A stretch of DNA of 64,000 bases from an uncultured Gammaproteobacteria bacterium. Lineage in GTDB: Bacteria > Pseudomonadota > Gammaproteobacteria > CAZYYU01. Below, piece by piece: positions 21,058 through 22,857 of the stretch; position 1 is the stretch's first letter, and the number at the start of each line of letters is the position of its first letter. Location: the NCBI GenBank assembly GCA_964651735.1, contig CAZYYU010000006.1, forward strand, positions 31,945 to 95,944, read 5' to 3'. The notes under the pieces were generated by a model. The model made no database searches. It saw only the letters and a program-made list of their open reading frames with translations, and had not been told where the DNA came from. Both the position numbers and the translations under genes were made by a program.

Positions 21058-22857
21058 TTACAAATCTGGACCCATACTAAATTCTACTCGACGGGGTTGA
21101 CCTGGTTTATCTAAGGCCTGAGCGAGGGTTAAGGAAATACTGCCTAGTACAGATCGATAAACCAAACCAATGCCCACACCTTTGTCTTGTTCTGTAAAAA
21201 TATTATTGTTAACGCTACCCATATCAAAAAAGACAGATCCAAATAAGTTATTATATAGACGTTGTTGTAGCTCAATACTGGCGATCGTCAAATTTCTACC
21301 ATCTTTGATTGTTCTATAACCATATCCACGTACGGATTGAGATCCACCTGCAAAAAACCGCAGTGATAAGGGTAGTTCCTCTAAATCTTTTATCATAATT
21401 CCACCAACTTCAGCTCTAGCGAGAAGCATTAAGTTATCAGAGAATGAATGTAGATATTTTGCATAGATATCTCCTTGAATGAAACTCGTGTCACTCAATA
21501 AATATTCACAAGTGCCTCGAACGCTGATGTTGATCTTGTAACCCTTCGTTGGGTGTAATGGATCATCACTGACTATACGTTGCCACTGCGCACTTGGAAT
21601 GATGTGTGAGGTGGTAAAGGGTAAAGCATCTTCAGGTTGTGAACGTTCCCAGTGCCATGTTAATCCTAAGGTCTGCTGCCATCGGAAGATTTCACTGATG
21701 TAGTTCGCTCCTAATCTCAGGGTTTTTGATTTACCGTAATCTACGTCTTTATCTTGCTCAGCTTCAACCGTGAATTTGAATAAATCTTTGACAGGATTGT
21801 AACCCGGAATATTGTAACTCAGATTAAATTTAGAGCTGATGGTATTATCTTTGAAGGCACCGTTGACTTGACTTGTAAGATAATGACCTGTGGTAGTGAG
21901 TTTGCGTAGCTCGACACCCGCCAGTCCACGCGGTCCAGTATCAGTGCCAAAGCCTACACCAAAATTATATCGTTTTCCTTTTCTTGGTGTTAATTTCACC
22001 AGAATGGGAACGGATTGATCAGACATTTTTTTTCGGTTCGGTTGTACAATCACTTCTTGATAATATTGACTTCCGGTAAGGTTACTTTGCAAAAGACGGA
22101 TTTGGTTTTGATCATAGGCCTCGCCTTTTTTGAAGGGTGCAAAACGTTTTAAAAAGGAATCTTTGAGATAGCCTTTTTGAGCTTCTGGGTGTTCAAAAAT
22201 AATATCACCAAATTTAAAACGCTGGCCGCTTTCCAGATGAATAATGATAGCCGCTTGATAGGATTTCATGTCAATTTCAATCACACTTTTTTGCAATTTT
22301 GCATCGAAATATCCGCGCGAAGTTGTAAGATCAATCAATTGTTGTTTAGCGGTTTTATAAATTTCAGTATTCAAATATTGATTTTCACCAATGGGAAAAT
22401 GCTTAACAAAATTTTTAAACTCAGGATCGTCTTTGGCACTTCCAGTAATGCTAATATCTATTTTTTTAACACGAATTCGTTGACCGCGTTCAACCTCGAA
22501 ATTCGCGATCCAGATTTGTTTGTTAGCATTCCATTCTAATTTTGAGCTTATTTTAGGCTTAAAATATCCAAAAGGAGAAATGGCATTTTTAATGACGGTC
22601 TGGCTTTTTTTATAAACGGAATCAATTTCTTCCTGAGTGGCTTCCTGTGTTAAATAAGCTTCAGTTTCAGAGAGCTGTTTTTTTGCATTACTAAGAATTT
22701 CACCTTTGATGCCACTGATATGAGAAACATATTTACTAGCAGCAGATACATGCAAGCTTATCAAGAACAATAAGGCAAGGATAATTCCTCCCCCCCAAGG
22801 GGGGAGGTGCCGAAGGCGGAGGGAGGGTATTAATACAATTTGCCTAATTATTTTCAT
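21058..22857 (-). CDS. tamA: TamA (Omp85/BamA-family outer-membrane assembly factor)
   Basis: POTRA-like N-terminal half. C-terminal barrel with FFAGGSQSVRGYGYR motif and a terminal aromatic-rich strand. ATG at 22857 is preferred over TTG at 22863. The N-terminal region contains the GC-rich repeat. Confidence 0.85.
   Translation of the reverse strand: MKIIRQIVLIPSLRLRHLPPWGGGIILALLFLISLHVSAASKYVSHISGIKGEILSNAKKQLSETEAYLTQEATQEEIDSVYKKSQTVIKNAISPFGYFKPKISSKLEWNANKQIWIANFEVERGQRIRVKKIDISITGSAKDDPEFKNFVKHFPIGENQYLNTEIYKTAKQQLIDLTTSRGYFDAKLQKSVIEIDMKSYQAAIIIHLESGQRFKFGDIIFEHPEAQKGYLKDSFLKRFAPFKKGEAYDQNQIRLLQSNLTGSQYYQEVIVQPNRKKMSDQSVPILVKLTPRKGKRYNFGVGFGTDTGPRGLAGVELRKLTTTGHYLTSQVNGAFKDNTISSKFNLSYNIPGYNPVKDLFKFTVEAEQDKDVDYGKSKTLRLGANYISEIFRWQQTLGLTWHWERSQPEDALPFTTSHIIPSAQWQRIVSDDPLHPTKGYKINISVRGTCEYLLSDTSFIQGDIYAKYLHSFSDNLMLLARAEVGGIMIKDLEELPLSLRFFAGGSQSVRGYGYRTIKDGRNLTIASIELQQRLYNNLFGSVFFDMGSVNNNIFTEQDKGVGIGLVYRSVLGSISLTLAQALDKPGQPRRVEFSMGPDL
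22787..22828 (+). repeat. GC-rich palindromic module (copy within the tamA 5' coding region)
   Basis: cctcccccccaaggggggaggtgccgaaggcggagggaggg has the same architecture as 48168-48214 and the reverse complement of 60700-60744. Confidence 0.8.

Follow-up and report, generated by a model that had tools for sequence, protein, structure and literature searches.

A triplex-type G/C-rich repeat in the signal peptide of TamA from an uncultured gammaproteobacterium: a probable passenger insertion

How can a gene for an exported protein carry a copy of a dispersed repeat inside its export signal, and does the copy serve that gene? The question is raised by tamA in a 64,000-nucleotide stretch of DNA from an uncultured Gammaproteobacteria bacterium (assembly GCA_964651735.1, contig CAZYYU010000006.1, positions 31,945 to 95,944), referred to below as the window. 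An initial annotation of the window had noticed a repeated module in the predicted signal-peptide region of TamA and considered it unusual for a protein of an essential pathway. The reading that we favor, with a probability of about three in four, is that the module is a passenger insertion, translated together with tamA and removed with the signal peptide.

The tamA coding sequence (21058-22857, minus strand, 599 aa), delimited by the open reading frame (ORF) list, Pfam matches, and 146 homologues, starts with an ATG at 22857. Its product matches the Pfam domains POTRA_TamA_1, POTRA, and Omp85 at E-values of 1e-8 to 2e-30, and tamB adjoins the gene. The start codon (22857-22855) lies inside the last codons of the upstream pseudouridine synthase gene rluD (22844-23854, minus strand; PseudoU_synth_2 and S4 matches in Pfam), which ends with a TAG at 22846-22844; the overlap of the two genes is 14 nt (22844-22857). 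The module occupies 22786-22827 on the minus strand, that is, 42 nt forming 14 in-frame codons (tamA codons 11-24, peptide PSLRLRHLPPWGGG). With about 85% G+C in a 39% G+C genome it is compositionally foreign, its G/C core being 22787-22827. The initial annotation had placed it at 22787-22828 within the rluD-tamA overlap. The module is indeed there, with the true codons shifted by one base, while the overlap claim has to be corrected: the module lies past the rluD stop and adjoins the overlap. The separation from that stop (22844-22846), given earlier as about 16 nt, is 15-16 nt by our measurement.

The direction of the change can be read from the closest relative. Among 5.8 billion proteins, the closest TamA (P0002, 83% identity) is encoded on contig L001, where the gene order is the same as in the window, bamD / rluD-tamA-tamB. 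In the window, tamB (18561-21047, minus strand; TamB, PF04357) is intact and immediately downstream of tamA, and bamD (23886-24647) is divergent and upstream of rluD. The tamA ATG of L001 is found at the same place within the end of rluD (TTTGAAAATGAA, compared to TTTGAGAATGAA in the window). The DNA alignment of the two loci contains a single 54-nt gap, corresponding to the module and four further codons. At the protein level, P0002 reads MNILKK, a gap, and LILPTLLLISFQIIAA before PKY, and the window protein reads MKIIRQ, IVLIPSLRLRHLPPWGGG, and IILALLFLISLHVSAA before SKY. The comparison with N-termini of relatives that the initial annotation had proposed as a check thus supports it: the nearest relative has no module, and among the matches listed the module peptide is present neither in P0002 nor in the other 118 TamA homologues. 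The number of residues before the first POTRA anchor is 48 in the window, 30 in the nearest relative, and 33 as the median of 115 homologues. The best explanation of this pattern appears to be that the module entered tamA after the split from the nearest sampled relative.

Translation almost certainly proceeds from the conserved ATG through the module, judging from the codons available. The initial annotation had argued for an upstream start from the absence of methionine between the module and the hydrophobic core. This absence extends to all in-frame ATG, GTG, and TTG codons, the next TTG leaving only the 11-residue leader MFLISLHVSAA, and both the ATG and the rluD overlap are conserved in the module-free relative. 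Because the ATG is conserved, the downstream starts are unusable, and the Shine-Dalgarno-like GGAGG of the module is locked in a stem, read-through from the upstream ATG is by far the likeliest mode of translation.

The resulting N-terminus is MKIIRQIVLI-PSLRLRHLPPWGGG-IILALLFLISLHVSAA-SKYVSH, with a predicted signal peptide at residues 1-40 (minus strand) and predicted cleavage after SAA; the whole leader is MKIIRQIVLIPSLRLRHLPPWGGGIILALLFLISLHVSAA, followed by SKY. It is 18 residues longer than that of the nearest relative, 14 of them contributed by the module, in agreement with the lengthening of the n-region by 14-18 residues suggested earlier. The module peptide adds R14, R16, H17, and then PPWGGG ahead of the core. 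Four K/R residues (K2, R5, R14, and R16) and no D/E precede the core. The segment after the module (IILALLFLISLHVSAA, 22738-22785, minus strand), identified by hydrophobicity analysis and alignment with P0002, comprises the core and the cleavage region. The remaining core, IILALLFLISL, is 11 residues long, and its most hydrophobic 9 residues average 3.70 on the Kyte-Doolittle scale, where the cores of 115 homologues have a 95th percentile of 3.48. Residues S38-A39-A40 provide small residues at positions -3 and -1 and are followed by S41. By inspection of features, the leader has the charged n-region, the 11-residue h-region, and the small -3/-1 residues of a Sec signal peptide cleaved by signal peptidase I. 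From these features we infer that the 40-residue leader probably still works and is cleaved after SAA. The gene is under strong purifying selection, its dN/dS being 0.067 in comparison with L001 (581 codons, dS near saturation).

A consistent scenario can be proposed. A copy of a dispersed G/C repeat of the intrastrand-triplex type, composed of a pyrimidine run, a small hairpin, and the 9-bp CCTCCCCCC/GGGGGGAGG hairpin, would have inserted into tamA. Because the 42 nt are stop-free and in frame, the ancestral ATG, in translational coupling with the end of rluD, would still serve as the start of tamA. Translation would thus include 14 extra residues, which would split the old hydrophobic region: MKIIRQIVLI together with the module peptide would become a long, positively charged n-region ending in Pro/Gly, and IILALLFLISL and then HVSAA would keep serving as the h- and c-regions. 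Signal peptidase I removes the Sec leader; mature TamA would therefore be unchanged once the leader is cut off after export, and the copy would persist as tolerated passenger DNA, decaying over time. A tolerated insertion is most expected in a cleaved leader, because the signal peptide is weakly constrained. In this light the word "unusual" was too strong: the cleaved signal peptide is among the least constrained stretches of a protein, and the other coding copy in the window lies in a disordered linker of MutL. The reference to an essential pathway does not hold either, since the translocation and assembly module (TAM) is a non-essential pathway in E. coli.

The window contains three copies of the module, in accordance with its initial description as a repeat. 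The pattern CCTCCCCCC-N2-4-GGGGGGAGG-N8-20-GGAGGG has three matches in the window and none in 100 dinucleotide-preserving shuffles, and an nhmmer profile built from 13 module copies reveals no fourth copy in the 64 kb. The tamA copy starts with the X segment CCCTCCCTCC (22818-22827), a pyrimidine run that mirrors the pyrimidine arm of the main hairpin and is a candidate Hoogsteen strand; it carries one T more than the X segments of the other two copies. It is followed by the mini-hairpin H2, GCC-TTC-GGC (GCCTTCGGC, 22809-22817), a single A, and the hairpin H1, CCTCCCCCC-TT-GGGGGGGAGG (22787-22807), with a 9-bp G/C stem sequestering the GGAGG; all three parts are on the minus strand. The H2 stem of the tamA copy has 3 bp; both of its counterparts in the window have 5 bp, and stems of up to 10 bp are found in other taxa. 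Copy 2 (48168-48214, minus strand) is intergenic, between dnaG (start at 48134) and a divergent ORF at 48284, and is the most complete one, with a 5-bp H2 stem and a UUCG loop. Copy 3 (60700-60744, plus strand) is in frame in mutL and contributes the peptide PPSAPLGHLPPEGGG to the linker that joins the ATPase/transducer domain to the dimerisation domain. It has the same orientation relative to the gene as the tamA copy and shares with it the frame of the 3' half. The module length is 42-47 nt, and the peptides vary with the frame (PSLRLRHLPPWGGG, PPSAYGTSPRRGE, LPPTGGDPEGRGG). The tamA copy is free of stops in all six frames, and its 42 nt keep the reading frame. ViennaRNA, which considers only Watson-Crick pairs, predicts both hairpins, with -28 kcal/mol for a 76-nt segment and modest folding z-scores of -1.6 to -2.9.

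Several other features were observed near these copies. The ORF adjoining copy 2 (48284-49885, plus strand, 533 aa) has a Gly/Ala-rich hydrophobic center and no obvious family. The mutL linker contains an additional G/C hairpin, GCTCCCCC-TTCC-GGGGGGAGC (60755-60775, plus strand), which lacks the third segment and was the only further element picked up by the profile. This simpler type, GCTCCCCC-N4-GGGGG(G)AGC, lacks the mirror third arm and also occurs just past genes on contigs L037 (5179-5200) and L038 (10856-10874), which carry mutL of close relatives. At tamA, the module flanks at 22839-22851 (AATAATTAGGCAA) and 22766-22778 (TTGCCTTATTGTT) are imperfectly complementary and pair around the module and the tamA start in the minimum-free-energy RNA fold. 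A flanking inverted repeat of this kind was rejected as a part of the insertion: the z-score of -1.6 is not significant, and the 5' arm falls within conserved rluD/tamA codons. A second, unrelated family in the window comprises palindromic elements of about 200 nt resembling miniature inverted-repeat transposable elements, with the ends GGGGTCAAACCGAGCCTC...GAGGCTCGGTTTGACCCC and four copies in 64 kb (3310-3505, 39280-39499, 40354-40571, and 42995-43206); it has no Rfam match.

The dispersed nature of the module is also seen in assemblies from activated sludge, the habitat of the window organism. In three activated-sludge runs (independent Logan assemblies), contigs span or reach the tamA module with no differences; it is fully spanned by one contig in run X1 and by another in run X3. 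In one run the contigs break at the module, and other contigs of those runs hold its 39-nt core in other contexts. Such breaks and the recurrence of the core elsewhere are as expected from a genuine dispersed repeat.

The fate of coding copies can be followed in mutL. The four closest MutL relatives (73-79% identity), all from other samples, hold module copies in the linker. In L037 one copy is antisense and one is sense (4382-4420 and 4450-4487), the latter being read in another frame (PPSAYGTSPRRGE). Two antisense copies are found in each of L039 (3753-3846) and L040. In L038 (3455-3688) both L037 copies are present at orthologous positions, mutated toward A/T, with the hairpin and the mirror arm lost; further copies on this contig closely follow hflX, occupy another intergenic region, and may also lie in the final codons of tsaE. 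Entry into genes is thus not tied to one orientation or frame; copies persist in the least constrained parts of the proteins and later erode. The varied orientation and frame of the coding copies, together with their decay, argue against a selected role at any one site. The mutL linker looks like a recurrent landing site, with one or two copies of differing orientation and frame in every close relative. On L039, the module-bearing mutL has a gene for an IS110-family (DEDD) transposase (8749-9807) at a distance of about 4 kb, with no established link between this gene and the module.

The family extends far beyond this lineage. A scan of one genome for each of 185,579 species used only H1 with five flanking bases (GGCACCTCCCCCC-NNN-GGGGGGAGG) and matched 35 contigs, all with 52-70% G+C; the genome of the window is not among the GTDB representatives matched by this pattern. 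The hosts include Chloroflexaceae and other Chloroflexota, Dehalococcoidia, Oscillospiraceae, Ruminococcaceae, Caulobacterales, Rhizomicrobium, Devosia, a complete Mesorhizobium chromosome, Candidatus Competibacteraceae, and unclassified Proteobacteria. Six more high-G+C contigs were obtained by a metagenome scan with the full pattern. A phage origin was rejected, as no module match was found in 2.9 million viral contigs. The reading as a cis-element of one gene or the end of one insertion sequence was also discarded, for an all-against-all comparison of the flanking ORFs of the 35 loci revealed no shared neighbor, and so was the terminator reading, as no T-run follows the hairpins in any taxon. 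In Rfam, no family reaches the threshold for any copy, and the low-score matches are to unrelated miRNA and snoRNA models.

Some hosts show higher-order arrangements. On high-G+C marine metagenome contigs (L043, 4795-5449; also L041 and L045) the module is a part of a tandem unit of about 100 nt, with 6.6 copies and 88% matches in L043, resembling the clustering of bacterial interspersed mosaic elements (BIMEs). In a Ca. Competibacteraceae metagenome-assembled genome (MAG; contigs L006, L009, L013, L019, L021, L026, and L034), H1 resides within an element of about 130 nt with GTAAGCGTTCA...TGAACGGTTAC as its terminal inverted repeats and two triplex-type units; several contigs terminate within this element. 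The chromosome of Mesorhizobium sp. ASY16-5R (L036) carries three triplex-type units with two arm variants within 1.4 kb (100-265 and about 1370), apparently intergenic. The presence of units in this complete isolate genome shows that MAG binning cannot account for the family. It recurs, with its hairpin-loop architecture, in isolates and MAGs of several phyla and is not lineage-specific.

Most loci share the order of a C-rich run ending in TCC, a GCC...GGC hairpin, A(C), and H1. The stem of the GCC...GGC hairpin varies from 3 to about 10 bp, and its changes are fully compensated. The first run is a mirror image of a hairpin arm, neither a direct nor an inverted repeat of it: CCCCCCTCC precedes CCTCCCCCC/GGGGGGAGG. 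As the MAFFT alignment introduced gaps in the X arm, covariation was counted directly. Across five arm variants the position of T in X follows the position of A in the purine arm. Thus, the purine arm GGGGGGAGA is accompanied by the upstream run CCCCC(C)TCT in Caulobacterales, Dehalococcoidia, and Mesorhizobium, AGGGGGAGG by TCCCCCTCC in Rhizomicrobium, GGGGGAGGG by CCCCCTCCC in Chloroflexaceae, and GGGAGGGGG by CCCTCCCCC in Competibacteraceae. A mirror segment with at most one mismatch lies within 45 nt of 87 of the 90 pyrimidine-arm hairpins that the retrieved loci contain, and the exact matches comprise 35 mirror and four direct repeats. Single-T 9-mers upstream of H1 have the T at the mirror position 23 times, at the register-shifted mirror position another 23 times, and never at the direct-repeat position. 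The mirror finding is independent of the search pattern, since the genome scan did not specify the third segment.

For a third strand to bind in parallel Hoogsteen fashion, with C+.G-C and T.A-T triples, a pyrimidine run in mirror register is needed, and the module has such a run; its purine complement on the other strand would fit the antiparallel purine motif. Under the three-block definition of a triplex motif (6-15-nt stems, at most one mismatch), the intergenic and mutL copies provide the Y block CCTCCCCCC, the R block GGGGGGAGG, and the third arm GGAGGGGGG (CCCCCCTCC on the other strand), and the tamA copy agrees with one mismatch, X being CCCTCCCTCC. By its architecture, the module is a G/C-rich intrastrand triplex motif, for which the triple helix itself is a candidate structure. 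Its identity as a motif of the BoxC/PIT/TMECO kind had been missed by the initial annotation.

Could the module nevertheless have been recruited by its host gene? It might tune TamA synthesis or targeting, either as a stable hairpin or triplex 30-70 nt into the message or through the charged n-region; possible routes are slowed early elongation, mRNA stability at the rluD-tamA junction, and an autotransporter-like extended signal peptide. In favor of such a role, the hairpins closely follow the rluD stop and fall barely outside the footprint of initiation at the tamA ATG, they are predicted to fold autonomously in mRNA (-28 kcal/mol for the 76-nt segment), the tamA copy keeps a perfect 9-bp stem, and pyrimidine-motif triplexes can form in RNA (PMC4666352). 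However, the closest relative does without the module, coding copies occur in both orientations and several frames and decay, the folding z-scores are modest, and earlier work found no promoter, terminator, or expression effect of PIT/TMECO (PMC4666352). We consider co-option unlikely. In a bolder version, to which we assign a somewhat lower probability still, a previously undescribed cross-phylum subclass of triplex motifs, with a hairpin as one loop, would colonize coding sequences, and in the sense orientation, as in tamA and mutL, the transcript would fold into a pyrimidine-motif triple helix or a hairpin knot about 30 nt past the start codon, controlling tamA translation or mRNA fate at the rluD-tamA junction, with the tamA copy acting as a regulatory device.

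The remaining alternatives concern the integrity of the gene and of the data. Translation could start downstream of the module, at ATT or ATC (22785-22780), with the perfect GGAGG at 22791-22787 acting as a new Shine-Dalgarno sequence and the module as an untranslated 5' leader. Yet the GGAGG precedes ATT by 1 nt and ATC by 4 nt, a spacing that is too short, both are very poor start codons, and the sequence is locked in the 9-bp stem; furthermore, the resulting leader MILALLFLISLHVSAA would be devoid of a charged n-region, and the upstream frame is open, with the ATG and the MK-II-R/K motif conserved in the relative. This start is very improbable. Hardly more credible, and if anything slightly less so, is the inactivation of export, which would make tamA a young pseudogene or its product a mislocalized protein. 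Proline, glycine, and charged residues do break the original hydrophobic region, but the 599-aa ORF is intact with all domains present and a dN/dS of 0.067, tamB is intact, and 95% of homologues have a weaker h-region than the one that remains here. Errors of sequencing or assembly, for instance poly-G noise or a chimeric join, can practically be dismissed as the source of the module: G/C homopolymer runs are error-prone, and the contig breaks seen in one run might raise the suspicion, but the module is spanned with no differences in X1 and X3, the reading frame is kept, and homologous copies with such structure are carried by relatives from other samples and by the complete genome of the Mesorhizobium isolate. 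The passenger insertion, translated and then cleaved off, has its own weak points. The nearest empty site available for comparison shares only 83% protein identity with the window, so that the insertion boundaries, including the assignment of the extra 12 nt (IVLI), are only approximate; the flanks of the empty (L001) and filled sites are too diverged, and no convincing target-site duplication is seen. No transposase or other mobilizing function was identified in the 64 kb of the genome that were covered. The intact 9-bp hairpin of the tamA copy may reflect a recent insertion and is equally expected of a selected structure. Finally, a search for RNA evidence found the tamA locus in no RNA run. 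We count all these points against the passenger insertion.

Residing in the signal peptide of TamA and in the MutL linker, the coding copies of the window show the distribution that selection is expected to leave of selfish DNA, as has been shown for Rickettsia palindromic elements (RPEs; Ogata 2000, 2002, cited in PMC10969869). G/C repeats of the triplex type, reported as strictly intergenic in the case of the E. coli BoxC/PIT/TMECO element, are here translated inside reading frames, and the family spans Chloroflexota, Bacillota, and Alpha- and Gammaproteobacteria. The copies point to protein segments able to absorb insertions, namely a cleaved signal peptide and a disordered linker, and the tamA locus is a natural experiment on the tolerance of a Sec signal to a lengthened n-region. 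From the practical point of view, such modules break metagenome assemblies, inflate the predicted lengths of signal peptides, and can mislead start-codon calling and signal-peptide predictors.

The module can be compared with several known systems. Yeast mitochondrial G/C clusters are G/C-rich, palindromic, and mobile elements of an A/T-rich genome, some of them in frame in VAR1. They are organellar and unrelated in sequence to the module, and to our knowledge no triplex architecture has been described for them. The extended signal peptide region (ESPR) of autotransporters and TpsA proteins yields Sec signal peptides that are 40-60 residues long because a normal n-h-c unit is preceded by an extended N-terminus, as in the leader of TamA. 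They show that such a length is compatible with export; however, the ESPR is a conserved, selected protein motif, whereas the module is a translated DNA repeat.

We know of no report of an RPE inside a signal peptide. RPEs are inserted in frame, tolerated where the protein fold is undisturbed, and subsequently decay (Ogata 2000, 2002, as outlined in PMC10969869). As far as that outline goes, the module is similar in being a palindromic repeat that is in frame in unrelated housekeeping genes (tamA and mutL), translated, tolerated, and decaying. RPEs, according to the same outline, are about 100-150 bp long and not G/C-rich, encode a conserved peptide of 30-50 residues in a preferred frame, and are confined to Rickettsia, whereas the module has 42-47 nt, is read in several frames, crosses phyla, and resides in a gammaproteobacterial MAG; it is thus not a member of that family. 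Literature searches by sequence strings returned irrelevant eukaryotic matches, and searches on palindromic in-frame elements returned RPEs and nothing on the module.

Repetitive extragenic palindromic (REP) sequences and the BIMEs and REPINs formed by them are likewise short (20-40 nt in REPs), rich in G/C, and imperfectly palindromic, and they are arranged as single copies, pairs, or tandem clusters. In the description provided by PMC3733652, they are extragenic by definition and usually have a GTAG or CGTC head. No such head adjoins the module copies, the mirror-repeat logic is absent from REPs, and no gene for a RAYT, the transposase associated with REPINs, is seen in the 64 kb examined.

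The closest counterpart is the E. coli triplex element TMECO, formerly BoxC or PIT, for which Hoyne et al. (2000) is the source cited in PMC4666352. Holder et al. (2015; PMC4666352) surveyed intrastrand triplex motifs in 5246 prokaryotic replicons, defined TMECO as CCCTCNCCC-N3-6-GGGNGAGGG-N3-GGGNGAGGG, and counted 3610 copies in 262 proteobacterial genomes. Its single strand forms a stable triplex in vitro, whereas none was detected in vivo; it is not known to act as a promoter or terminator or to affect expression, is unlinked to mobile elements, is "always located intergenically" in E. coli, and marks elevated local rearrangement (PMC4666352). The module shares with TMECO a size of about 40 nt, high conservation, multiple G/C copies, and a C-rich and a G-rich arm with a third arm in mirror register. 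Both are class II on one strand and of the pyrimidine-motif class on the other, have no orientation bias and no linked transposase, occur in many bacterial groups, and have unstable copies that decay between relatives. The differences are equally clear. The arms are CCTCCCCCC/GGGGGGAGG in the module and CCCTCNCCC/GGGNGAGGG in TMECO, and the TMECO pattern has no match on either strand of the window. The connector to the third arm is 3 nt in TMECO, whereas in the module it folds into a separate G/C hairpin, 11-15 nt long here and up to about 30 nt elsewhere. Loop 1 of the module is 2-3 nt, and the ITxF program allows 1-6 nt for both loops; because the connector exceeds this limit, an ITxF search would miss the module subclass. 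Unlike TMECO, the module is compositionally foreign to its A/T-rich (39% G+C) host, and two of the three window copies are located in the tamA and mutL reading frames, which sets the module apart from an exclusively intergenic element. In summary, the triplex architecture is already known, and the copies inside genes are new.

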